Shown: positions 529 to 27,429 of the stretch, piece by piece
Position numbering within the stretch: the stretch's first letter is position 1
Layout of the letters: every line of letters starts with the position of its first letter
Assembly: GCA_046759445.1 (NCBI GenBank)
Contig: JBHICG010000045.1
Location: 1 to 27,734 of the forward strand
Length of the DNA stretch: 27,734 nt
DNA from: Candidatus Scalinduaceae bacterium
Lineage (GTDB): Bacteria; Planctomycetota; Brocadiia; Brocadiales; Scalinduaceae
Direction: 5' to 3'
Position numbers and translations under genes: made by a program
Notes under the pieces: generated by a model
What the model was told of the DNA's origin: nothing
The model's input: only the letters and a program-made list of their open reading frames with translations
The model's database searches: none

Positions 529-670
529 TTTTAAATAGAAATTAATGTTTTAAATTGTACATCTCACACTTATAGATTTAGAATTTAAATGAGTTTCGAT
601 CTTTATAGATTATTGCATCTCAATTTTACCGTCATTATATAGGAAAGGTGAGGTGATAGGAAATTTTTTT

Positions 671-828
671 TTTACCCCGTAGGAATACTCAGTGCGCCCG
701 TCCCCGCCAGAACAGCCTTGTCGGGCTGGCAACCGGCACGGGAGGGGAAGCACGGGTCTGATAAATTAGATAACTTCCGCTTTTTCGCACGTGTTTTAAT
801 GCGTCATGTGAAATTCCAACGGAGTTTA
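671..828. repeat. REP/MITE-like element (ends TTTACCCCGTAGG...GAAATTCCAACGGAGTTTA) with a ~114 bp internal insertion
   Basis: The ends are imperfect inverted repeats and match the reverse complement of the compact copy at 13803-13847. Confidence 0.7.
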
Positions 829-845
829 CTTTAAAGGTTGGTATA

Positions 846-1309
846 TTAAACATCTCCTGCTTTTGCGAGGGAGTAACGCGTTGCTATGGGGCCTAGGATT
901 TCATAAACAACTGTTGTTGCGACAATCGTGTTAAATATGGCGCCTCCAATATCGGGCAGATTCACCTTTGCTAACATGGCAAGCCCAAGTGCTACTCCGG
1001 CTTGAGGCATAAGTGCTAGCCCCATGTATTTTTTTATGTTCTTCTCAGTTCCAGCAATTATCCCTCCCACATAAGCGCCTCCCATTTTACTACAACCCTT
1101 AGGGTAATATAAACTGAACCGATGAGACCCAGAGGAAGGCATACCTTCATGATGTCCTCAGAATTTACAACTCCCAGAACATTTTTCTTTTCATCTATGA
1201 CTGGCAGGGTGTGAAAATTATGTTTACGTAATTTGGCTATAAGCTTGACCAGGGTCTCATCCCTGGTTACGGTTATTACATCTCTGCTCATTACGTCTTT
1301 TACTATCAT
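846..1309 (-). pseudogene. Chimeric remnant: N-terminal CBS domain fused to the C-terminal fragment of a cation/H+ antiporter, with a frameshift
   Basis: 1309-~1134 encodes a CBS repeat (MIVKDVMSRDVITV...LPVIDEKKNVLGVV). It continues into LGLIGSVYITLRVV, and in another frame into KMGGAYVGG...GLALMPQAGVALGLA...YEILGPIATRYSL (antiporter C-terminus). A single missing G near 1090 explains the shift. Confidence 0.8.
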
Positions 1310-1424
1310 TATTATCTTTCCTCAGAAACATTATTGCTAAGATAGGATTAAAATTTTTCGTTAAATATATAGAATTATGAGATTATGGCAAGTCTTAACT
1401 TTTTATAAACTTACACTATTTTGC

Positions 1425-1453
1425 TTGCTCAAACCATTTGACATTAATAGAAT
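1425..1453 (+). promoter_or_regulatory. Putative sigma70 promoter of purD
   Basis: TTGCTC-N17-TAGAAT, 35 nt upstream of the purD ATG. Confidence 0.5.
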
Positions 1454-1487
1454 AGGTTTTTTTATAACGTAAATATACTAATTTAAA

Positions 1488-2756
1488 ATGAAGGCATTGG
1501 TAATTGGCAGTGGTGGAAGAGAGCACAGCCTTGTTTGGAAGATAGCTCAATCTCCACAGGTAAATAAGATATTTTGTGCACCCGGGAATCCGGGTATTTC
1601 AGAAATGGCGGAATGTATAGATATAGCTCCAGAGCAAACAGATTTACTTTGTGAATTTGCCGTTAAAGAAGGCATAGACCTTACCGTTGTAGGCCCGGAA
1701 GCGCCATTAGCAAACGGGATTGTTGATGATTTTAGCAAACATAATCTAAATGTCTTTGGGCCCAGCAAAAGAGCGGCATTTTTGGAAACCAGCAAGGTCT
1801 TTGCAAAATATCTTATGAGGAAACACAGCATACCCACGTCAGATTTTAGATATTTTGATAACCATGACGAGGCTAGAAGTTTCATTCTCTCAAAAGGAGC
1901 GCCAATAGTCGTAAAGGCAGATGGGTTAAGCAAAGGCAAGGGGGTATTTGTTTGTAATACTGAAAATGATGCTATACGGGCAATAGATTCCATAATGAAG
2001 GACAAGGCATTTGGAAATGCCGGCGATAAGGTAATAATTGAAGAATATCTTAAAGGAGAAGAGGTTACGCTTCTGGCATTTACGGATGGGAAGACTATCG
2101 TTTCCCTGGAAAGTTCCCAGGACCACAAAACGATTTATGACGGTGATAAAGGACCGAATACGGGAGGTATGGGCGCTTACTCACCTGTACCCCTAATGAC
2201 GACCGATTTATATCATCGTGTAGAAAAAGAAATACTGGTGCCAGTAGTTCATGCCATGAATAAAGAAGGAAGACCTTATAAAGGTGTTCTTTATGTTGGT
2301 TTGATGATTACGTCCTCAGGGCCCAAGGTGTTGGAATTCAATGCCCGCTTCGGAGATCCAGAGGCACAGGTATTACTCGTTCGTATGAAAAGTGATATAG
2401 TGTCAATTATGATGTCTACAGTTTCCGGGGAATTGAATACTATCGATTTAGAATGGCTCCCGCAGGCATCAGTATGCGTTGTGATTGCTTCGGGCGGTTA
2501 CCCCGGTCATTACTCCAAAGGAATGGAAATTAAAGGATTGGATTTATTAAAAAATCGAGATGACATACACGTTTTTCATGCTGGCACTAAACTTGAGAAT
2601 GGAAAGATATTAACTGATGGCGGTCGTGTGCTAAATGTCGTCGCCATTGGAGACAGTATTAAGGAAGCACAAAGGAAGGCGTATGAGGCCGTTAGCAAGA
2701 TATCGTTTGAAGGTGCTTATTGCCGTAAGGATATTGCCTATAAGGCAATAGAATAA
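1488..2756 (+). CDS. purD: Phosphoribosylamine--glycine ligase
   Basis: GSGGREH, APGNPG, VVKADGL.KGKGV, GPNTGGMGAYSP, EFNARFGDPE and FHAGT motifs; 422 aa. Confidence 0.98.
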   Translation: MKALVIGSGGREHSLVWKIAQSPQVNKIFCAPGNPGISEMAECIDIAPEQTDLLCEFAVKEGIDLTVVGPEAPLANGIVDDFSKHNLNVFGPSKRAAFLETSKVFAKYLMRKHSIPTSDFRYFDNHDEARSFILSKGAPIVVKADGLSKGKGVFVCNTENDAIRAIDSIMKDKAFGNAGDKVIIEEYLKGEEVTLLAFTDGKTIVSLESSQDHKTIYDGDKGPNTGGMGAYSPVPLMTTDLYHRVEKEILVPVVHAMNKEGRPYKGVLYVGLMITSSGPKVLEFNARFGDPEAQVLLVRMKSDIVSIMMSTVSGELNTIDLEWLPQASVCVVIASGGYPGHYSKGMEIKGLDLLKNRDDIHVFHAGTKLENGKILTDGGRVLNVVAIGDSIKEAQRKAYEAVSKISFEGAYCRKDIAYKAIE

Positions 2757-2880
2757 TTTTTCATTTTTTGTTCGTTTTATAAATGGGAACTCGCATAATA
2801 AGCTTTCGCAAAATAGAATGCATATCTTTTTCTATCATTATGCAACTCCTGTACATGGGATAATTGTACAAGACTTTTAA

Positions 2881-3672
2881 GTGTGTATAAACGCGAGGAA
2901 TAAAGAGATTAGAATAAAACACACCAAAATCCCTATCAAAGACATAGCAAAGAAACTAAGTAAAGGTGTAAAGTCTGTTTCAGAAGACATAAAGGGAAGA
3001 ATTCCTCTTTATGTCGAATTTTTAAAATCCCTTGCCAGCATAGGTAAGAATGTATCACTCGACCCAGATAGGGGGCTTATAAAAATCAAGGAAGATTTTA
3101 TCAACGATTACCTAAAGGATGAATCTGTCGAAGATAAAGGTTTGAAGTCAATCAAAATTTCCTGCAAAGATAGAAATGCATCTTTCTTTATAGAGTTGGA
3201 AAAGCTCCTTTTTGGAGGCATAATCGAGATCCCATTTACGGTTGAATGTTTTGAATTCAGCAAGGAAGAGAGGACAATTACCTTTAAATTCGGTGATAAA
3301 AAAATAAACAAAGCAAGGAATTATTATTCACAGATTATGTTCTGGTTTATGTTGTCAATACTCAGTATATTTTATGGAAAGGAGACGTTGTTAAAGAGCA
3401 GCCTTCTTTATCCAAATTCACTCATCGTTAATACTGATGGCACATATACGATAGACCTTAACTTAATCCCTGCACTTGAAGAAATTTTTAATAAAGATAT
3501 GGTTAATATAAAATACTGGGACTTGATCTCAATGGACAAATTGTCGTTTGAAGAAGGCATGGTAATACTCAGACTTTCGCATAAACTCGCAACAATAACA
3601 AAGATATCAATCGGGGTCTTAGAAATTTTACCTGCTGGTCGATTAATCAGACCTTTGATCAATAGGTTTTAA
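2881..3672 (+). CDS. Hypothetical protein (263 aa) with one hydrophobic segment
   Basis: Long ORF with the same A-rich codon style as its neighbours. No recognised motif; the GTG start is uncertain. Confidence 0.7.
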   Translation: MCINARNKEIRIKHTKIPIKDIAKKLSKGVKSVSEDIKGRIPLYVEFLKSLASIGKNVSLDPDRGLIKIKEDFINDYLKDESVEDKGLKSIKISCKDRNASFFIELEKLLFGGIIEIPFTVECFEFSKEERTITFKFGDKKINKARNYYSQIMFWFMLSILSIFYGKETLLKSSLLYPNSLIVNTDGTYTIDLNLIPALEEIFNKDMVNIKYWDLISMDKLSFEEGMVILRLSHKLATITKISIGVLEILPAGRLIRPLINRF

Positions 3673-3861
3673 GGCTACGGCCGGGTTTGACATCCTAATC
3701 GATATCTCAGCTTTCCTGATACAATGAATATTGTACATTCCATTTGCCAGAAACAAAATAACCATAAACAAGATATTTTTGTTTCAATTAGTTTCTGTTG
3801 TGGAAAACAAATTAGTATTTCAAAATAACGAAACCTAAATAACAGAAAGACGCATAATCGG

Positions 3862-4890
3862 GTGAAGGCGGTTGTCAAAACTAAATGTACCAGGGGTATG
3901 GAATTTCTGAATGTCCCTACTCCGAAAACAGGATCAAGAGACGTACTCATAAAAGTCAAGCTGGCTTCGATCTGTGGCACCGATGTGCACATATACGACT
4001 GGACACGCTGGGCTCAACACCGTATTACCCCACCCTGCATTGTAGGTCATGAGTTTGTTGGAAATGTGGTAAAGATCGGGGATGAAGTGACAAAAGTAAA
4101 AGTGGGAGACTGTGTTTCTGCCGAAAGTCATATTTTCTGCGGGCACTGCTATCAATGTCAAAACGGATATACCGAGGTGTGCAGAAACTGTAAATTGTTA
4201 GGAGTGGACTTTGATGGCACCCTGGCTGAATTCATCGTCTTACCCGAACATGTTCTGTGGAAAAACGATCCAAACATCGCGGACGAATGGGCCACTGTCC
4301 AGGAACCCTTTGGAAATGCCATTGATACAGTCATGTCGGAAGATGTCTCTGCAAAGACGGTCTTGATCCTCGGTGCAGGCCCTATCGGGCTTTTCGCTAC
4401 AGGTATTACCAGGGCTTGCGGCGCTTCATTGGTCATCGTCTCAGATCCAAATAATTATCGATTGGCTATTAGCAAAAAGATGGGCGCCCACATAGCCCTT
4501 AATCCCAGGAGACAAGATGTAACTCAACTAGTCCTTGAAGCCACAAAAAATAATGGCGTTGACGTTGTCCTGGAATTTTCTGGTAGTAACCAGGCGCTGA
4601 ACCACGGCCTAAAGGTCGTCACTCCGGGTGGTAGAATCTCCATTCTGGGAATTTATGAGAGACGTGTCACTATCGACCTGAACAAGGAGGTCATCTTCAA
4701 GAAAATCCGTATTTATGGTGTAACAGGACGCAAGATATTTTCCACATGGTACAAGACTTCGCATTTCTTATCCTCTGATCTCGTTGATCCAGGCCCAATC
4801 ATCACACATCAGTTTTCATTAAAGGACTATGAAAAAGGCATGAAACTCATGAAGGACGGAAAGTGTGGAAAGGTTATTTTAAAAGTTTAG
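3862..4890 (+). CDS. tdh: L-threonine 3-dehydrogenase
   Basis: SICGTDVHIY, GHEFVG, CGHCYQC...C zinc site, GAGPIG, GVTGR; adjacent to kbl. Confidence 0.95.
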   Translation: MKAVVKTKCTRGMEFLNVPTPKTGSRDVLIKVKLASICGTDVHIYDWTRWAQHRITPPCIVGHEFVGNVVKIGDEVTKVKVGDCVSAESHIFCGHCYQCQNGYTEVCRNCKLLGVDFDGTLAEFIVLPEHVLWKNDPNIADEWATVQEPFGNAIDTVMSEDVSAKTVLILGAGPIGLFATGITRACGASLVIVSDPNNYRLAISKKMGAHIALNPRRQDVTQLVLEATKNNGVDVVLEFSGSNQALNHGLKVVTPGGRISILGIYERRVTIDLNKEVIFKKIRIYGVTGRKIFSTWYKTSHFLSSDLVDPGPIITHQFSLKDYEKGMKLMKDGKCGKVILKV

Positions 4891-5044: not shown

Positions 5045-6220
5045 ATGAACAAACTAAATTTTATCACCGAAGAACTAGAAAGACTTGAGGAAACAGGGCT
5101 ATTAATACATACTCGTACAATTCAAGGACCACAGGGTGCATGGATTGTTGTGGATGGAAAAAAGGTACTTAATCTCTGTTCCAACAATTATCTGGGATTT
5201 GCCGATAATCCTCAACTTAAATCAGCCTCTCAAAAGGCCATTGAAACGTATGGCGTAGGTCCTGCAGCGGTAAGGACTATTGCCGGAACAACGACCCTGC
5301 ACAAAGAGCTGGAACGAAAACTAGCACTCTTTAAGGAAGTTGATAGTACTATATCATTTCAATCTGGATTTTGTGCAAACCTGGCGGTTATACCCGCAAT
5401 CGTTGGAGAAGGAGACGTTATCTTTTCAGATGAACTCAACCATGCAAGTATCATTGATGGATGTCGTCTTTCTAAAGCCAGGGTAGTTAGATATGGACAC
5501 TGTAATCCTGAAGACCTTCAGGCAAAAATTATTTCTGAAAAAGATGCAAGACGCAGGCTTATCATTACCGACGGTGTTTTCAGCATGGAGGGAGACATTG
5601 CGCCATTACCAGAAATCGTAAACATTGCCGAAAAATACGAAGCCATTACAATGGTGGACGATGCACATGGAGAGGGCGTATTGGGACGAGGGGGCAGGGG
5701 TATTGTAGATCACTACAACCTGGACTATAAAGTTGATATCGAGATGGGTACCATGTCAAAGGCATTCGGTGTTGTGGGTGGATATATTGCAGGAAGCAAA
5801 ATATTAACGGATTATCTGGAACAAAAAGGACGTCCTTTCCTCTTTTCAAGCGCCGTAACGGCGGCTGACGTGGCAGCCTGTATCGCTGCGGTGGACACTC
5901 TTAACGCATCAGACACTCTTTTCAGACAGCTCTGGGCAAATACTACATTCTTCCAGGAAAAGATTAAGCAGGTAGGGTTCGATCTTGGTAATACAAAAAC
6001 GCCTATTACGCCTATTATGATAGGTGGCGCTGAGATAGCCAAAGATTTCAGTCAGAGGTTATTTGAGGAGGACATCTTTGCTCAGGCCATTGGTTACCCC
6101 ACGGTGCCAATTGGCAAGGCACGCATACGTGTAATGATTTCGGCCACACACAATGAGGATGACCTTGAATGGGCTATAGAGCGTTTTGAAAAGATCGGAA
6201 AAGACTTGAGAATCCTGTAA
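5045..6220 (+). CDS. kbl: Glycine C-acetyltransferase (2-amino-3-ketobutyrate CoA ligase)
   Basis: [40 protein letters not shown] (PLP Lys); follows tdh. Confidence 0.93.
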
Positions 6221-6283
6221 CGAAAAATATATTCACAACATACTATAATGTGTTAAAATAAGGAATTCATTTATGAATCTAAA

Positions 6284-6319
6284 TAGTATTTGTTGCGGAA
6301 AGCTTAAGTACCCAAAAAT
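6284..6319 (+). repeat. Truncated left end of the MITE-like element found at 10516-10649
   Basis: TAGTATTTGTTGCGGAAAGCTTAAGTACCCAAAAAT vs TAGCATCTGTTGCGGAAAGCTTAAATACCCAAAAAT (33/36 identical). Confidence 0.75.
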
Positions 6320-6347
6320 TTAAAAAATGGGAAAGGAGTATTGCATT

Positions 6348-7169
6348 ATGAAAAAAACCGTTATCATAATTTCAGTTATTTTGGCAATATTGATAGGGCT
6401 TTATTTTGGCAAGAATATTATAGCCAAGACTTCCGTTTCAGCCGGGGTTAGGGCGATGACGGGTCTTAAGTTAAGTATAAGGAGTATGAATGTTGGGATA
6501 CTTAAAACCTTAATCGGCATCAAGGAGTTGCAGTTGTATAATCCACCAGGGTTCGTAGATGAATTAATGGTGGATATACCAGAAATTTATGTAGATTATA
6601 ACTTGGGAGCTTTTATAAAAGGAAAGGCACACCTTGAGGAGGTTAGAATGAATCTAAAAGAATTCGTAATCGTTAAGAATGAAAAAGGCGAGCTTAATCT
6701 TGATTCATTAAAAGTCGTTGAAGCAAAAGAGGAGGTAGAAGAAGAAAAGGATGTTAGTGAAAAGAGAGAAACGGAAATGCCTGAGCTTCAAATAGACGTA
6801 TTGGAGTTAAAAATAGGCAAGGTTATATATAAAGATTATTCGAAAGGAATTCCACCAAAAGTAAAAGAATTTAACGTAAACATTGATGAGCGGCATGAGA
6901 ATATAAAAAACCCTTACACCTTTGGTAGTTTGATTATATTTAAGGCTCTTAAGAATACTACCATTGCCCGTCTTGCAAATTTTGATATAGGGAAATTACA
7001 AAAGGGGATTACAGGAACAGTTAAGAAGGCAACTGAGAAGGCTCGAGAAACTACAGGCAAGGCTGTAGAAGTCGGAAAGAGTATAGGAGAAAAGGTCAAA
7101 GGTCCAGCTAAAGAGACAACAGAAAAGGCCACGGAGACTATTAAGAAGCTTTTACCATTCGGGAAATAA
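6348..7169 (+). CDS. AsmA-family / membrane-anchored hypothetical protein
   Basis: RBS AAGGAG before ATG 6348 (MKKTVIIIS). N-terminal TM, L.L.NPPGF motif, G.LNL motif and a charged C-terminal helix. Confidence 0.75.
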   Translation: MKKTVIIISVILAILIGLYFGKNIIAKTSVSAGVRAMTGLKLSIRSMNVGILKTLIGIKELQLYNPPGFVDELMVDIPEIYVDYNLGAFIKGKAHLEEVRMNLKEFVIVKNEKGELNLDSLKVVEAKEEVEEEKDVSEKRETEMPELQIDVLELKIGKVIYKDYSKGIPPKVKEFNVNIDERHENIKNPYTFGSLIIFKALKNTTIARLANFDIGKLQKGITGTVKKATEKARETTGKAVEVGKSIGEKVKGPAKETTEKATETIKKLLPFGK

Positions 7170-22019: not shown

Positions 22020-22386
22020 CTACAATAAAAAGCATATCCAATATGCAATTGCAAAGTGGTAGGAAACAAGAAAAGCAAAGATACCGCCAGCTATCATCAA
22101 AAGTAAGCTAAACAACCAGAGACCATTTTGGAACTGGTGGTGGTGAATCAAGATAGTCAATATCTCCGGTATCTCGATCGAAAGCACTATTAAAGGCTAA
22201 TGTACCACCGTTTAGCATGATTGGCCAAATAATCACTCCAAAAAATAACCATGTTATGTTTGATATCCATTCCGCATGTGGCAAGGCTACAAAATAACCG
22301 ACTGTTGTGTGGCCTGCTACTATTGGCCAGGAACATGGCCTTAAATGTAAAAAATAATGTTTTACTCTTATATTATTTATTTTCAA
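22020..22386 (-). pseudogene. UbiA-family prenyltransferase, frameshifted and truncated
   Basis: HLRP.SW, NGGTLAFNSAFDRDTGDI, PPPVP. After a frameshift near 22125 it reads LWLFSLLLMIAGG...AYWICFLL*. Only ~120 aa remain. Confidence 0.8.
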
Positions 22387-22434
22387 TTTTATCCTTTTTT
22401 TTAATTAGAGGCTTAGGAATTTCAATGTATTTTG

Positions 22435-22512
22435 GTAAGAGCCGTCTCCCGACGGCGAGTAGCATCCCACAATGTTGTGCAAGCCCTGTCGCCAACGGGA
22501 GTTGGCTCCTAC
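22435..22512. repeat. GTAG-type REP doublet (REPIN-like)
   Basis: GTAAGAGCCGTCTCCCGACGGCGA ... TCGCCAACGGGAGTTGGCTCCTAC in inverted orientation, each with an internal palindrome. Confidence 0.75.
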
Positions 22513-22554
22513 CGTGTAAAATTATATTAAAGCTGTCGAAGGCAGCCTAATTTG

Positions 22555-23052
22555 ATGAATGACATAAAAATCAGAAAGGTTGAGGACCATGACTTAGATG
22601 AATGTTATAGCGTAGAGTCTGCTTGCTATACTTCTGACGGTGCAACAAGAGAGAAGATTCAAAAACGCATAAGGTTTTATCCTGAAGGATTCTTGATTAC
22701 CGAATCTAAAGGGCAAATAATTGGACTCATTAATAGCGGAGCTACAAACAGAGAAGACATAACTGACGAAGAATTCAAGGATATGGTTGGTCATGTTAAT
22801 GATGGTAAAAATATAGTCATTTTTTCCTTAGCCGTCTTACCTGAATTCCAGGGAACTGGAGTTTCTAAACAGTTGATGTCAAGGTTTATTGAAGTGTCAG
22901 AAGACCTTAAAAAGGATAAGATTCTATTGCTTTGTAAATCTGAATTGATTCCCTACTATCAAAATTATGGTTTTTTATATGGTGGAAAATCAAAATCAAC
23001 ACATGGTGGTTTCGAGTGGTATGAAATGTATCTGCTGCTTAAGGCCAAGTAA
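22555..23052 (+). CDS. GNAT-family N-acetyltransferase
   Basis: IFSLAVLPEFQGTGVSKQLM acetyl-CoA motif, LLCK.ELIPYY...GF, STHGGFEWYEM. Confidence 0.92.
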   Translation: MNDIKIRKVEDHDLDECYSVESACYTSDGATREKIQKRIRFYPEGFLITESKGQIIGLINSGATNREDITDEEFKDMVGHVNDGKNIVIFSLAVLPEFQGTGVSKQLMSRFIEVSEDLKKDKILLLCKSELIPYYQNYGFLYGGKSKSTHGGFEWYEMYLLLKAK

Positions 23053-23240
23053 CATTCCTATTCACCGCACCCGCCAAACTAACCGTCGGGCAGGGAGGAC
23101 ATCACGGTCACAGAGAAAAACATTGAGGCAAGTCGTCCGAGACGCCCCTTGGAGCAACTCCTAGATCCGACTCAGTCGGGAAGCAAGAAGTTATTATTTG
23201 TTATTAGTTATATGGTTTTATGCAGTAAATAAAATAGTGC

Positions 23241-23285: not shown

Positions 23286-23303
23286 TAAAAGGAGGTGAAC
23301 ATA

Positions 23304-23531
23304 ATGCGAGTTACAATTAAGGGGCAGGTGACAATCCCCCGCCACATTCGTGAAAAACTGGGAATTACGCCTAATACTGATGTTAGTTTTCAAGAAGAAG
23401 GTGGAAAGGTTTATTTAACAAAGAAGAAAGTAACAGTTCCAAAGAAAAACAGATTTCGCCGTTACCGGGGTATTGCAACTGTCAAGATGACTACGGATGA
23501 AATTATGACCTTGACCAGAGGCAGGAAATGA
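23304..23531 (+). CDS. AbrB/MazE/SpoVT-family antitoxin (VapB-like)
   Basis: MRVTIKGQVTIPRHIREKLGI.P; SD AAGGAGGTG; ATGA overlap with the toxin gene. Confidence 0.93.
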   Translation: MRVTIKGQVTIPRHIREKLGITPNTDVSFQEEGGKVYLTKKKVTVPKKNRFRRYRGIATVKMTTDEIMTLTRGRK

Positions 23532-23932
23532 CCGGGATATTGATTGATTCCAACGTGATACTGGACCTGTTTGAAGAAGATTCCGGTTGGGTTGAATGGT
23601 CGGAAGAGATGCTAAATCTATACAGCTACACTCATACCTTGTACATAAACCCTATAATATATTCCGAGGTTTCTATAGGTTTTAAACGTATTGAAGAATT
23701 GGAAGACGCTTTATCAGGATGCGGCTTCGAACTTTTACAAATCCCGAAAGAAGCTCTTTTTCTTGCTGGAAAGACATATCTTAAATACAGAAAGCGTAAG
23801 GGAACCAAGATGTCTCCATTACCGGATTTCTTCATAGGTGCCCATGCTGCCGTAGACAAACTGGAATTAATGACGAGAGATACGCCGCGATACAAGTCAT
23901 ATTTCCCAACTGTCAAACTCATATCACCATAA
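23528..23932 (+). CDS. vapC: PIN-domain VapC-family toxin
   Basis: LIDSNVILD, IIYSE, LPDFFIGAHA, LMTRD acidic catalytic residues. Confidence 0.93.
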   Translation: MTGILIDSNVILDLFEEDSGWVEWSEEMLNLYSYTHTLYINPIIYSEVSIGFKRIEELEDALSGCGFELLQIPKEALFLAGKTYLKYRKRKGTKMSPLPDFFIGAHAAVDKLELMTRDTPRYKSYFPTVKLISP

Positions 23933-24119: not shown

Positions 24120-24251
24120 TTCTTATTACTTTGCAAATCTGAATTGATTCCCTACTATCAAAATTATGGTTTTTTATATGGTGGAAAATCAAAATCAACA
24201 CATGGTGGTTTTGAGTGGTATGAAATGTATTTATCACTAAATGCAGAGTAA
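24120..24251 (+). pseudogene. Duplicate 3' end of the GNAT gene
   Basis: 24135-24230 matches 22936-23031 at 95/96 nt; it ends YLSLNAE* instead of YLLLKAK*. Confidence 0.9.
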
Positions 24252-24278
24252 CATGCTCCATATGTATCGCACCCTTTC

Positions 24279-24452
24279 TTAACGGGCGCTGTCCCTAGTT
24301 TCGTCAGAATTATTTGTATAATACTCATCTAGAGGCACATTTCCATTTTCAATAGCGCCGTTACCAATGAGAAATATTACCTCAGGTATAAACAGCTTAT
24401 TATCTATCCTAAATATTCTGTAATCATTTTTTTGTTGTTTTTTAGTATTCAT
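24279..24452 (-). pseudogene. Short ORF, possible N-terminal remnant of a SIR2-like/AbiH-like protein
   Basis: MNTKKQQKND...PEVIFLIGNGAIENG; directly downstream of and co-oriented with the helicase; ends next to the GNAT duplicate. Confidence 0.35.
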
Positions 24453-24515
24453 AGCTTTATCTTCACATCCCCCTCTTACTTCCTCTAAGGCTACTCCCAA
24501 TGTCAAGACAAAATA

Positions 24516-25349
24516 TCATCTGTCAGTACCTAACCAGTCACCCATTCCACTCCATCCACTATCTTTATAAGTCCTGTCTGGTCTGGTAGGTATATCATCT
24601 GGTAATGTTCCCTTTTCTAGCAGTTCACCTTTGCAGTATTTTCTCCATTCAGTCCTATTCTTTAATCCGAGAGTATGAACAAATACACGTGCTTCCTTGA
24701 AGGAACAAAACTTTCTGTCCTTTGGAGCAACTATACCCGTACCCAGCCAGTCACCCCAGCCGTTCCATCCCTGGCCTTTAAAGGATCTGTCTGGTTTAGC
24801 AGGTATATCTTGAGGTAACATACCATTTTCTGGTAGTTCACCTTTGCAATATTTTCTCCATTCAATATTACTCTTTAACCCGAGACTACGGACAAATGAA
24901 CGTGCCTTATTAAATGAACGGTACTTTCGTTTCTTTGTAGCGACAGTGCCCGTACCCAGCCAGTTACCCCAGCCTTTCCAACCTTGCCCTTTATAGGTTC
25001 CACACGGATTGGCAGGTATATCCTCTGGTAATTTCCCCTTTTCTGACAATTTACCTTTGCAGTATTCCCTCCATTCTATATGACTCTTTAACCCGAGACT
25101 ATGGATAAATGCACGTGCTTTCTTGAAGGAACGGTACTTTCTGTCCCGTGGAGCAACAGTTCCAGTACCTAGCCAGTCACCCCATCCGTTCCATCCCTTA
25201 TCTTCATAAGTCCTTTCTGGTTTGGCGGGTATATCATCTGGTAATGTTCCCGTTTTTGATAACTTACCCTTACAATATTCTCTCCATTCACTATTACTCT
25301 TTAAGCCGAGACTACGGCTAAATTCACGTGCTTCTTCAAATGGACGCCA
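24516..25349 (-). repeat. Four 213-bp intragenic repeats
   Basis: A CCAGT(C/T)ACCC motif recurs at ~24534, 24747, 24960 and 25173. Confidence 0.92.
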
Positions 25350-27338
25350 AGATAATTTAGCTAACCGTAACCAGAACTGCAACTCAACAGAATTGATGAA
25401 GCCTTCTGCATCAACAACTACTCCCTCAGGAATATTAATTTCTATTGGTCTTGTTCCTCTTGTCCACTGTCTGCCCTGTGATACGCTTCGGAAATACTCA
25501 ATAATACGCTCATCGTTCGCACCTAATGCCCGAAGCGTTATCAACACAGCGTCAAATGCTTTCGTCTGGAGGGATGTTCTGTCTGTTACTTCATCATCCA
25601 ACAACACTGGCACTACTACATATCCATATTTCTTTCCTACTGCGGGCCGTAATGCCCTCCCCACAGCTTGTACAATGTCTATGGCACTTTTCTTAGGGTC
25701 AGCGAATAAAATACAGTCGATGTTCGGTACATCCACACCTTCCGTCAAGCACCGGGCATTGGTGATCAGGCCTCGTTTGGCAGCCTCAAATGTATCTATC
25801 TGTCGACTACGGACAGCAGTTGGTGTCTTACCAGATACATGAAAAGTATCCAATTCACCGTATTCAGGAAAAGTAGAATTGAAATTTTCTTGATTGATCT
25901 TAAACACCTTTGCACGGGCAATACTATTGTGAAAGGAGATAATGTGACGAATGGGATGTTTCTGCATTGCCTTACGTAGAGCTATTATGGCTGCGAAAAT
26001 CTCAGCTTCAACATTACCATCCCATTTGCCTCTATCAGGTTTCACAAACATGTTACATTTGATCAGCCTGGCAATTTCACTACGTGTTACCTGGATTGTA
26101 ACGATCTTGTAGTCACTGAGAATGGCAGGTCTGGACTCCAATGCCTTTTTAAAACTTAGTAGTTCAAATGTTTCCCCATATAGTTCAGGATTGTCCATAC
26201 TGGCAATCTGATCGCTTTTCCCCATGTATCTACGTTCGGTAGCGGTCATGAAGATACGTTTTTTTATTCTGATATTTTCATCGTACAGTATATGGCTAAA
26301 CAGACTGTCCTTTTTGCCCACTGTTTTGTGAGCTTCATCCATGATTCCAATGTCAAACACTATACCTGCTCGCCTGGCCGCTTCTGAGGTCGATCGGCTG
26401 CTTTGATATGTAGTAAAGACTACTGTGGTGTTGCTTTTTTGTTCATTAAGCCACTGCGCAATCTCTCCCGAGTCTGTATGGATTCGTACACCCAAGTCCT
26501 GAGTTAGCACAGCAACATCTTCTCGTTCAAAGTATCCAACTGTTTCATCACTACAAACGACAATCCAATTGATGTCCTGCTGGTTTGCGACAGCCTCTCT
26601 AGTCCAAACTTCCAATGTCTGCCGGATCAAACACAAACTAGGCACAGCTAATAGAATAGTACGAGCTTTCAGTTTCTGGGCAAGCCAGTATCCAGTCAAG
26701 GTCTTACCAGTTCCACAAGGTTGTATAAGTTTGCCTCGTGAGTTTTTTTGTTTAATGAAATATTGGTAGGCTTGCTGGATCGCTTTCTTTTGGTGTTCTC
26801 GTGGTTTGAGGGGATTGAGTGATATTACTTTGTGGTCTAAATAATTGTGTAGTCGACTGAAAAATTCCTTTTCAAGTCCACGCCAGATGTCTCCGGCACA
26901 GAAACTTAGCCTTTCTCCATACATTGTGAGCTTATGGCTAAAACGGTCAGCACTTGTACACACAAGCCCAAGTTCTATTTTTTTGCTAATGCTGAAAGCC
27001 AGAGATGTGAAGGTACTCAATTCTCTATTGGTAAGCGATTTGTCTTCGTTCTCGCGGTATTTGCATTGGATAGCCCAGTATGCGTCATCTTTCGTTTCTG
27101 CAATAAGGTCTATTCCCTCATCTGTCCCTGGGATGTTGAGACGCTTTCGTACACGAGATGGTACTTCACTTAGAAACCAGACATTTTTGAGCTGTGTAGA
27201 GTATTTGGGATGTAGTTGCAGGAAGTTTTTTGTTAATGTCTCAAAGCAATCGCCTTTTTGCTTCTTGGATAGCGGCTGAACATAAGCCTTAAAATCTTGC
27301 CAGCTATTACATTTGCGGAGAATGTTTATGACGTTCAT
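24516..27338 (-). CDS. Mrr-like restriction nuclease - SF2 (DEAH) helicase with four C-terminal 71-aa tandem repeats
   Basis: E..T...GIDLIAET.D..YWAIQCK nuclease motif; PCGTGKT, DEAH, TAT, LTEGVDVP, QAVGRALR; repeats F..AR.F..SLGLK...EWR.YCKG...LP.DIP..P...Y...GW.GWGDWLGTG. Confidence 0.9.
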   Translation of the reverse strand: MNVINILRKCNSWQDFKAYVQPLSKKQKGDCFETLTKNFLQLHPKYSTQLKNVWFLSEVPSRVRKRLNIPGTDEGIDLIAETKDDAYWAIQCKYRENEDKSLTNRELSTFTSLAFSISKKIELGLVCTSADRFSHKLTMYGERLSFCAGDIWRGLEKEFFSRLHNYLDHKVISLNPLKPREHQKKAIQQAYQYFIKQKNSRGKLIQPCGTGKTLTGYWLAQKLKARTILLAVPSLCLIRQTLEVWTREAVANQQDINWIVVCSDETVGYFEREDVAVLTQDLGVRIHTDSGEIAQWLNEQKSNTTVVFTTYQSSRSTSEAARRAGIVFDIGIMDEAHKTVGKKDSLFSHILYDENIRIKKRIFMTATERRYMGKSDQIASMDNPELYGETFELLSFKKALESRPAILSDYKIVTIQVTRSEIARLIKCNMFVKPDRGKWDGNVEAEIFAAIIALRKAMQKHPIRHIISFHNSIARAKVFKINQENFNSTFPEYGELDTFHVSGKTPTAVRSRQIDTFEAAKRGLITNARCLTEGVDVPNIDCILFADPKKSAIDIVQAVGRALRPAVGKKYGYVVVPVLLDDEVTDRTSLQTKAFDAVLITLRALGANDERIIEYFRSVSQGRQWTRGTRPIEINIPEGVVVDAEGFINSVELQFWLRLAKLSWRPFEEAREFSRSLGLKSNSEWREYCKGKLSKTGTLPDDIPAKPERTYEDKGWNGWGDWLGTGTVAPRDRKYRSFKKARAFIHSLGLKSHIEWREYCKGKLSEKGKLPEDIPANPCGTYKGQGWKGWGNWLGTGTVATKKRKYRSFNKARSFVRSLGLKSNIEWRKYCKGELPENGMLPQDIPAKPDRSFKGQGWNGWGDWLGTGIVAPKDRKFCSFKEARVFVHTLGLKNRTEWRKYCKGELLEKGTLPDDIPTRPDRTYKDSGWSGMGDWLGTDR

Positions 27339-27429
27339 GTATATCTTTTAGGAAAATAGGAATACCAACGGATTTATTCATTCTTGAGAGATTACAGTAT
27401 ACTGATGTAATTCATCAATCGTCAATCCC

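Follow-up and report, generated by a model that had tools for sequence, protein, structure and literature searches.

The sequence considered here is a contig of Candidatus Scalinduaceae bacterium (JBHICG010000045.1); it was analysed over its full length of 27,734 bp, hereafter the window, and is part of a 3.62-Mb, 145-contig assembly. On its minus strand, at 24516..27338, lies a single open reading frame (ORF) of 940 amino acids with an ATG start and a stop codon at 24516-24518, which encodes a nuclease joined to a superfamily 2 (SF2) motor and followed by four tandem repeats. A preliminary description, made from the letters alone, had marked this feature; its coordinates are confirmed and correspond to one ORF, and the strand is corrected to minus. 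The G+C content is 42.8% in the gene vs 39.2% in the window. We believe that the following observation is new: judging by sequence comparison, near-identical nuclease-motors (hereafter the chassis) in the family of this protein appear to carry non-orthologous repeat arrays, the identity collapsing at the array start. The array is a plausible target-choosing part of what would be a single-gene defence enzyme. The parts of the gene are the following.

24516..27338, minus strand: whole nuclease-motor-repeat gene (ORF call; two runs, 0 differences)
26844..27338, minus strand: Mrr-family PD-(D/E)xK nuclease, residues 1-165 (Pfam Mrr_cat_2; LlaBIII alignment; motifs E33, D73, D77, Q91, K93)
25500..26828, minus strand: SF2 helicase-like ATPase/translocase, residues 171-613 (ResIII and Helicase_C; LlaBIII/LlaGI alignments; invariant columns; Foldseek)
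25350..25499, minus strand: linker, possibly coupler-like, residues 614-663 (LlaGI alignment extends to query residue 668; low model confidence)
25137..25349, minus strand: INT_rpt-type repeat 1, residues 664-734 (Tandem Repeats Finder; protein units; array model)
24924..25136, minus strand: INT_rpt-type repeat 2, residues 735-805 (Tandem Repeats Finder; protein units)
24711..24923, minus strand: INT_rpt-type repeat 3, residues 806-876 (Tandem Repeats Finder; protein units)
24519..24710, minus strand: INT_rpt-type repeat 4, short, residues 877-940, protein C-terminus (Tandem Repeats Finder; protein units)

The whole gene is present on a single contig in each of two public metagenome runs (possibly those from which the assembly was made), with 0 differences and 0 joints; the four-unit array is therefore no obvious assembly collapse. 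No RNA run was among the sequencing runs listed as containing it.

Over the first 663 amino acids, the two nearest relatives match the protein with 83% and 80% identity, and both have 8 repeats vs 4 in the window; their repeats are at most 74% identical to any repeat of the window protein, which is about its own repeat-to-repeat identity. Across the family, 87 pairs of proteins are at least 90% identical over the N-terminal ~660 amino acids; two of these pairs are the same protein, so that 85 are informative. The mean best repeat-to-repeat identity is only 43-73% in 78 of the 85, and the following pairs illustrate this.

P0082 and P0098: N-terminal identity 99%, best repeat 65%
L012 and P0120: N-terminal identity 99%, best repeat 66%
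P0078 and P0110: N-terminal identity 97%, best repeat 55%
L074 and L078: N-terminal identity 94%, best repeat 47%

Sliding windows along five such pairs show a sharp boundary: before the array the identity is 85-100%, and by 20-40 residues into repeat 1 it has dropped to 35-70%. Nonsynonymous (dN) and synonymous (dS) divergence was estimated by the Nei-Gojobori method for 7 locus pairs: dN is 0.026-0.106 in the chassis and 0.25-0.62 in the array, and dS is 0.23-2.8 in the chassis and ranges from 0.86 to saturated in the array. In 6 of the 7 pairs the array dS either exceeds that of the chassis or is saturated, and in the seventh (L052/L061) both are near saturation; the array dN/dS is 0.25-0.36 where computable. 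Considering the higher array dS together with the sharp junction, we conclude that the arrays are not orthologous and have been replaced or reshuffled by recombination rather than merely mutated faster. At the level of sequence the array is thus the exchanged and fast-diversifying cassette of the family, and we infer that it would set the specificity. The repeat number, whose comparison among homologues had been suggested in the preliminary description, varies too: in the 178 of 204 sequences with a full N-terminus the repeat number is 1 to 14 with the mode at 7-8, and 10 of them have four units. An analogous case is described in an excerpt of PMC3553950: LlaGI and LlaBIII have >95% in common over their first three domains, the difference between them lying in the recognition domain, and the array exchange mirrors this.

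The chassis itself is well supported by known families. In Pfam, Mrr_cat_2 spans residues 42-137 (E 1.1e-16), ResIII residues 177-368 (E 1.3e-15) and Helicase_C residues 453-564 (E 6.9e-12). The nuclease motif quoted earlier as 'IDL...AIQCK' corresponds to I76-D77-L78 ... A89-I-Q91-C-K93, and a HMMER alignment to LlaBIII places E33, D73, D77, Q91 and K93 on E38, D74, D78, Q92 and K94 of LlaGI/LlaBIII. An excerpt of PMC2790908 reports the LlaGI mutants D74A, D78A and K94A as nuclease-dead and E38A and Q92A as partly active. Across 61 homologues, the nuclease residues D73, D77, Q91 and K93 are invariant, as are P207, C208, G211 and K212 of Walker A (207-PCGTGKT-213), all four residues of DEAH (334-337), T365 and A366 of motif III (365-TAT-367), and Q557, G560, R561 and R564 of motif VI. 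Since the nuclease and ATPase motif residues are conserved, the enzyme looks catalytically competent.

Among all PDB sequences, the top match is LlaBIII (4xqk, E 2.5e-58, query 25-613 on chain 30-649) and the second-best is LlaGI (5ffj, E 3.7e-46, query 171-668), followed by RadD at E 1.2e-7. A full-length AlphaFold2 model was built from the 61-sequence alignment (mean predicted local distance difference test, pLDDT, 81.5; predicted template modelling score, pTM, 0.66), and Foldseek with this model retrieved LlaBIII 4xqk at E 3.4e-36 and LlaGI 5ffj at 2.3e-17, the next tier being near 1e-11 (ISW1, RadD, XPB, EcoR124I HsdR, SauUSI (7clg, 1.1e-10) and ZorD). The Type ISP enzymes LlaBIII and LlaGI are by far the closest solved relatives, in sequence and fold alike. 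This agrees with the preliminary description in three respects, namely an N-terminal PD-(D/E)xK Mrr-like nuclease with all LlaGI catalytic residues aligned, a complete SF2 helicase with all motifs present, and the same nuclease-helicase N-terminal half as in Type ISP. Residues 614-663, which follow, include a helix at 644-660 and a conserved junction ending in ...LAKLSW; they may be coupler-like, as the alignment with LlaGI extends as far as query residue 668, but the model has low pLDDT at 620-662, with values <50 at 626-630, 637-642 and 650-662.

What follows the linker is not what Type ISP enzymes have at this place. No methyltransferase family was found in the protein by Pfam and NCBIfam scans, and the motif [DNS]PP[YFWH] is absent from all its 940 amino acids, as had been noted at the start. 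There is no target recognition domain (TRD) either: the LlaBIII match stops by chain residue 649, and residues 664-940 are the four INT_rpt-type repeats instead. The best PADLOC model, REase_MTase_IIG (a Type IIG fusion of restriction endonuclease and methyltransferase), reaches E 3.3e-91 and is matched over profile positions 15-643 of 1646 only. The further claim that no methyltransferase gene is nearby stands for the window, where none of the 24 ORFs scanned is a DNA methyltransferase; it is checkable on one side only, as the contig ends 396 bp upstream of the start codon. Since the two defining features of Type ISP, the methyltransferase and the TRD, are absent, we do not file the gene as Type ISP; and without a methyltransferase, protection of the host DNA by methylation is impossible.

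At the DNA level, Tandem Repeats Finder reports the array at 24526-25336 with a period of 213 nt, 3.8 copies, 76% matches, 0 indels and a score of 857. The protein units are 664-734, 735-805, 806-876 and 877-940 and are mutually 61-70% identical. Four units of 71 amino acids had been proposed: there are indeed four tandem units, the first three of 71 amino acids and the last of 64, and the last repeat has 64 in close homologues too. Scanned alone, the array scores 23.4 bits (E 7.3e-5) against Pfam INT_rpt (PF14882), slightly below the cut-off of 26.5; relatives retrieved by a four-unit hidden Markov model or by phmmer with the array pass this cut-off (P0186 at 100.8, P0239 at 67.2 and another at 61.1 bits). 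On the strength of these sequence relatives we regard the window repeats as probable members of PF14882 INT_rpt ('Integrase repeat unit', earlier PHINT_rpt), an uncharacterised family. Both resemblances that had been suggested, integrase repeat and helicase-associated (HA) type, have some foundation: the window repeats are of the former type, and HA repeats occur on a sister family with the same chassis. Pfam gives no HA match in the window protein, and a profile-to-profile comparison of INT_rpt with HA (hhalign) detects no relation (probability 0.5%). The array is basic (pI, the isoelectric point, 9.78; 56 K+R vs 34 D+E; net charge +22).

The conservation of the repeat was considered over 1455 units from ~200 homologues. 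The conserved scaffold comprises F4, A7, R8, F10, L14, L16, W22, C26, G28, P37, D39, I40, P41, P44, Y48, G52, W53, D58, W59, L60 and G61, and the variable positions are 5, 9, 13, 15, 19-20, 23-24, 29, 32, 35, 38, 42-43, 45-46, 50-51, 54, 56, 64 and 67-69. The fixed Trp/Gly scaffold and the variable patches described earlier from the four window units coincide with this family-wide pattern. Such a conserved core with variable positions is what is expected of any small repeat and is not in itself a code. In particular, we do not claim a code like that of transcription activator-like effectors: the variable positions are many and scattered, and the repeats do not correspond to one another by position, not even in the closest relatives.

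An AlphaFold2 model of the four units, based on a 32-sequence alignment, has pLDDT 95.3 and pTM 0.67; each repeat is predicted to consist of a helix of 10 residues, one of 8 residues and three short ones. Foldseek with the whole four-unit model returned 0 PDB matches at E <= 0.001 (best E 0.64), VIA-align over 48,161 chains returned 3 chains at Z >= 2 (best Z 2.5, RepB 3dkx), the HA structure 2kta was absent from the matches of both programs, and an ESM Atlas search with the array gave no usable match. The lack of a fold match to a four-unit model is no proof of a new fold. Against a viral structure library the array gives 2 matches at E <= 0.001, one to an unnamed protein and the other to a Klosneuvirus SF2 helicase.

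A separate observation concerns Exonuc_X-T_C (the ExoI C-terminal family), which matches a 28-residue stretch of the array with 32.7 bits, above cut-off, over profile positions 201-228 of 269; the same short stretch is matched by NCBIfam exodeoxyribonuclease I at positions 410-437 of 477. The match falls on the first helix-turn-helix of each repeat (residues 882-909 and equivalents), and we treat it as an unexplained local similarity. A database record has PF26016 precomputed for the window protein; our own Pfam scan did not return it.

The protein is no rarity, its family running to thousands of members. A word-indexed search with the window protein gave 3155 proteins at E <= 0.001; the best 120 of these are 47-79% identical (the closest 76-79%), 1016-1640 amino acids long and nearly all of the same architecture, and the window protein is the shortest among the proteins listed. 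Where the homologues have names, these are 'DEAD/DEAH box helicase family protein', 'restriction endonuclease' or 'integrase repeat-containing protein'. A search with the array over 1.84 billion representative proteins gave 5877 clusters at E <= 0.001, of which 1439 also pass E <= 1e-30. The best 150 array matches include 77 that are essentially repeats-only (up to 17 units), 24 with a ~660-aa nuclease-motor in front and 49 with other extensions. The latter are mostly fragments of the same helicase, and many pass the Pfam cut-off for INT_rpt; further partners of INT_rpt among them are SAP (2), Integrase_2, ankyrin, PilZ with TPR, and one helicase with Methyltransf_8. One protein, P0231 (1317 aa), has an inverted order: seven N-terminal INT_rpt units, then a ResIII/Helicase_C helicase, then Methyltransf_8.

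In a collection with one genome per species (185,579 species), chassis relatives are encoded in at least 564 of 602 pattern matches. The best 80 of these loci are 45-65% identical and belong to Verrucomicrobiota, Lentisphaerae, Planctomycetes, Bacteroidota, Campylobacterota, Desulfobacterota, Nitrospiraceae, Leptospirales, Obscuribacterales and others. INT_rpt units are found on the matched ORF in 69 of the 80 loci, and most of the remaining 11 are split or cut by contig ends. Loci L065 and L053 have the helicase part and the array in separate ORFs (in L065 the helicase part has 627 aa and the ORF behind it 9 units), by frameshift, split or decay. Among 40 genomes of the same order as the window genome, 7 have any homologue, all at 35-40% identity, and in the three of these that were examined, HA (PF03457) repeats, from 4 to 6 or more in number, stand where the window protein has INT_rpt; the sister family is thus a Mrr_cat_2/ResIII/Helicase_C chassis with HA repeats. 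Genes from other phyla are closer to the window gene than those of its same-order relatives, which is a signature of an accessory, horizontally acquired gene. The window gene is, accordingly, a member of a large, patchily distributed and unstudied family; in searches of full texts we found no published account of INT_rpt function or of the nuclease-motor-INT_rpt architecture. Five IMG/VR loci (L094, L096, L098, L121 and L122) encode chassis homologues of ~900-1040 amino acids whose C-terminal 300-400 residues have no INT_rpt, HA or other Pfam match, and these tails may be further unnamed C-terminal modules on the same nuclease-motor.

Comparison with the known systems defines what the protein could be. 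Like LlaBIII and LlaGI (4xqk, 5ffj), it is a single polypeptide with an N-terminal Mrr-family nuclease having the same motif residues, with the same SF2 double-stranded DNA (dsDNA) translocase core, alignable over 25-613 (to 668 with LlaGI), and with a variable C-terminal module that is exchanged on a conserved chassis. Unlike them, it has four INT_rpt repeats after a poorly modelled linker, whereas Type ISP enzymes have a gamma-class N6-adenine methyltransferase and a TRD, both of which it lacks. The HA-repeat nuclease-helicases (PF03457) of the window genome's own relatives share its chassis at 35-40% identity and a C-terminal array of 60-70-aa helical repeats; their repeat sequence is, however, unrelated to INT_rpt. 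With Type IV restriction enzymes the window protein shares the lack of a cognate methyltransferase. A working precedent for a methylase-less motor nuclease is SauUSI (7clg), described in an excerpt of PMC7913695 as a single polypeptide with a nuclease, an SF2 motor, a C-terminal target-recognition part and no cognate methylase; it differs in having a PLD-family nuclease and a different recognition domain, and is far more distant than LlaBIII.

We presume that the product of the gene is derived from the Type ISP chassis, stands alone and lacks the methylase; most likely it is an accessory, horizontally moving enzyme that targets DNA in defence or in a restriction-like manner. In our estimate this explanation has about an even chance of being right. 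For such an enzyme we infer DNA binding, translocation, collision-type cleavage and a role in defence, in the following manner. The basic C-terminal array would hold the enzyme on its target, most likely DNA, and so fill the place of the TRD of Type I and Type ISP enzymes. The SF2 motor, with its motifs intact, would by homology hydrolyse ATP and translocate on dsDNA as LlaBIII and LlaGI do, and by analogy with Type ISP the Mrr-type nuclease would nick or cut upon blocked translocation or upon collision of two enzymes. In Type ISP, as stated in an excerpt of PMC7049714, the methyltransferase-TRD part recognises the site and stimulates the ATPase via the coupler, the motor translocates, and nicking needs a two-enzyme collision. 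In the absence of a methylase, the sparing of self DNA would have to come from what the array binds; speculatively, self and foreign may be discriminated by array recognition of, e.g., modified or otherwise foreign DNA, as in Type IV enzymes, and by this analogy such DNA seems the most economical guess. The preliminary reading is borne out in part: the Type ISP-type nuclease-motor, the absence of methyltransferase and TRD, and the integrase-type repeats stand, and the array as a variable, specificity-type module has the indirect support of near-identical chassis with unrelated arrays and a sharp junction. A stronger version of the reading is unlikely in our opinion, namely that INT_rpt arrays are modular nucleic-acid readers in which each ~70-aa unit reads a short stretch or a modification state via variable surface positions (19-20, 23-24, 42-46 and others), that array exchange retargets a constant motor nuclease, and that HA arrays are a second independent solution.

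The neighbourhoods were scanned for two ORFs on each side in 31 loci with long flanks (124 ORFs). DNA methyltransferases are absent from the 124. At 4 of the 31 loci there is a phage-type integrase within two genes; DUF559 occurs at 3, and ParE, Fic and DUF5677 at 2 each; SIR2_2, DUF3800, DUF2971, UvrD, PDDEXK_1, YhcG, GIY-YIG, AAA_14/DUF4143, Bro-N and RmuC occur at single loci. Plausible PADLOC defence or candidate matches (E <= 1e-10) lie within two genes in 8 of the 31 loci, which is a description and not an enrichment; in one of the loci, L018, GajB is matched at 788 bits, with PDC-S23 and PDC-S31. Matches to QueC, EngA (as LeoA/BC) and an ABC transporter (as mad3) were taken as spurious. 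In IMG/VR, 51 loci encode the chassis and 8 of them have INT_rpt arrays of 3-5 units; on two longer contigs the gene lies beside an integrase (L086, L093), and in L093 a primase then follows. INT_rpt itself was found on no integrase in the window and on neither of the two integrases beside the viral homologues.

The gene upstream of ours, represented by the 3' part of a metallophosphoesterase-like gene, has an orthologue in a same-genus genome, L143 (G001:C49), 90% identical over 100 amino acids. There it is followed by a 306-aa gene, a 304-aa gene and an HA-type nuclease-helicase, in the opposite orientation; this HA-type paralogue is ~2 kb from the phosphoesterase orthologue.

L143 (G001:C49) 5081-6001 and 6083-6997, minus strand: two ~305-aa genes, between the phosphoesterase orthologue and the HA-type nuclease-helicase

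The other of these two proteins, that of 304 amino acids, carries a 'YRGQ' motif, which may be that of FRG-domain proteins, and the 306-aa protein is 22% identical over 239 amino acids (pairwise E 1.9e-6) to the DUF4238 domain of L020. The latter is a gene at 669-4859 of a contig from a Verrucomicrobia metagenome-assembled genome, in which six INT_rpt units are followed by a fused C-terminal DUF4238 (Pfam E 2.3e-37). A DUF4238 protein gave strong T7 resistance, according to an excerpt of a preprint (10.1101/2021.01.21.427644). The L143 locus looks like a variable defence-type hotspot; the flanking gene that it shares with the window, the link to DUF4238 and the IMG/VR integrases point to a mobile or defence context.

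Several points weigh against the reading as a methylase-less defence enzyme with a target-choosing array. A methylase-less motor nuclease blind to sequence would be toxic, and we found no published experiment on any member of the family. The position of the array relative to the core is not set by the AlphaFold2 model, where the linker pLDDT is <50, and the repeat shows no detectable relation to HA. The protein collection was clustered at 90% identity, by which pairs with the same array are hidden; the array-exchange pairs share members, and nearly all the sequences are metagenome-assembled. PADLOC-DB v2.0.0 was checked for a full-length match to a known system, as the preliminary description had suggested, and holds none for the window protein, the matches being partial only (restriction-modification fusion models and helicase cores). 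There is no conserved partner gene: when all ORFs of 81 loci are clustered, the two most frequent neighbour clusters are found at 7 and 6 loci. The expected defence-island neighbourhood gave a mixed result, since beside the 8 loci with a plausible defence match about 14 of the 31 show housekeeping or unknown genes only. The neighbours in the window are housekeeping genes, a GNAT gene (22552-23052) and a VapBC pair (23295-23932).

The protein might be a defence enzyme in which the INT_rpt array is a protein-binding sensor or scaffold, like the TPR, LRR and WD40 immune arrays; by recognising a phage protein, or as the target of phage inhibitors, it would gate the nuclease-motor instead of reading DNA. 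Diversified and exchanged arrays on a constant core suit a surface that competes with proteins in an arms race just as well as one directed at DNA. The repeat occurs also with ankyrin and with PilZ and TPR and stands alone in 77 of the 150 best representatives, and the lack of a fold match to a known DNA-binding domain is in line with this. We nonetheless regard it as unlikely, given the strongly basic array and the partners of the repeat, which are mostly DNA enzymes plus SAP; in addition, DNA binding is reported for HA, the analogous repeat of the sister chassis (by the title of the 2kta structure paper, as cited in an excerpt of PMC12191111), and the Type ISP module at the position of the array is a DNA-recognition unit (excerpt of PMC7049714). 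Similarly improbable, in our view, is a helicase-nuclease of repair, recombination or replication restart, like RadD or XPB-Bax1, with the repeats as a non-specific DNA tether and with no defence role. It would account for the matches of the helicase core to RadD and XPB, for the many loci, the window included, that lie among housekeeping genes, and for the lack of a methylase partner or a conserved defence partner; but LlaBIII is far closer than the repair helicases (E 3.4e-36 vs about 1e-11), 33 of the 40 same-order genomes have no match, the nearest homologues are in other phyla, the gene is linked with integrases and DUF4238, and a wholesale array exchange on a near-identical chassis is unexpected for a housekeeping repair factor.

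The gene may also be cargo that serves a mobile element or virus in competitor exclusion, host DNA degradation or element maintenance, and not host defence as such. The 51 IMG/VR loci, 8 of them with INT_rpt arrays, speak for this, as do the integrase beside the gene in L086 and L093 with the primase in the latter, the phage-type integrases in 4 of the 31 genomic loci, and the best viral-library structural matches to the array, which are an unnamed protein and giant-virus SF2 helicases. However, domain scanning of the ORFs and a tRNA scan showed no integrase, phage or tRNA gene in the window, short IMG/VR contigs may not be viral, and element-borne defence genes look alike, so that the two explanations overlap; taken on its own, we consider the cargo explanation very unlikely. 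Both this and the protein-sensor alternative overlap with the defence reading.

As to the significance of the methylase-less derivative, Type ISP is a well-understood model of a motor carrying a nuclease along DNA, in which the methylase-TRD half is responsible both for choosing the target and for protecting self DNA. When a large family found in nature keeps the nuclease-motor and has exchangeable repeat arrays in place of this half, the question arises of how a motor nuclease is aimed and self DNA spared without methylation. Nature also provides ready-made material for swap experiments, in pairs whose chassis are 95-99% identical and whose arrays are unrelated. Should the arrays set the specificity, the family would be an abundant and overlooked single-gene defence class, and INT_rpt would gain a function; it is present in thousands of proteins, among them giant ones made of repeats only and helicases encoded by viruses. 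Further, if the units are in fact modular readers, this would be a naturally reprogrammable, methylase-free restriction enzyme.

The remaining observations concern the surroundings of the gene. A promoter-like site was noted upstream of it.

27396..27425, minus strand: promoter-like TTGACG-18-TATACT, a hint only, in the 91-bp gap upstream of the start codon (10/12 matches)

A scan for promoters and terminators gave 8 promoter-like sites in the region, not above shuffles (mean 9.5). The small downstream ORF (24279-24506) and the partial upstream ORF have no Pfam match, and an Rfam scan of the window found nothing. A direct repeat of ~150 bp with 88% identity (22925-23072 and 24124-24274) brackets VapBC: its copy 1 is the 3' end of the GNAT gene and copy 2 lies between vapC and the nuclease-helicase gene, as would result from an insertion of the VapBC cassette that duplicated the end of the GNAT gene. 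An element of ~50 bp at 23132-23181 recurs in >20 places in two same-genus genomes, and within ~22384-22575 the stretch around 22417-22525 stands out in the runs by a contig depth raised several-fold and by numerous loose ends; both look like dispersed short repeats, possibly similar to miniature inverted-repeat transposable elements or repetitive extragenic palindromic sequences.

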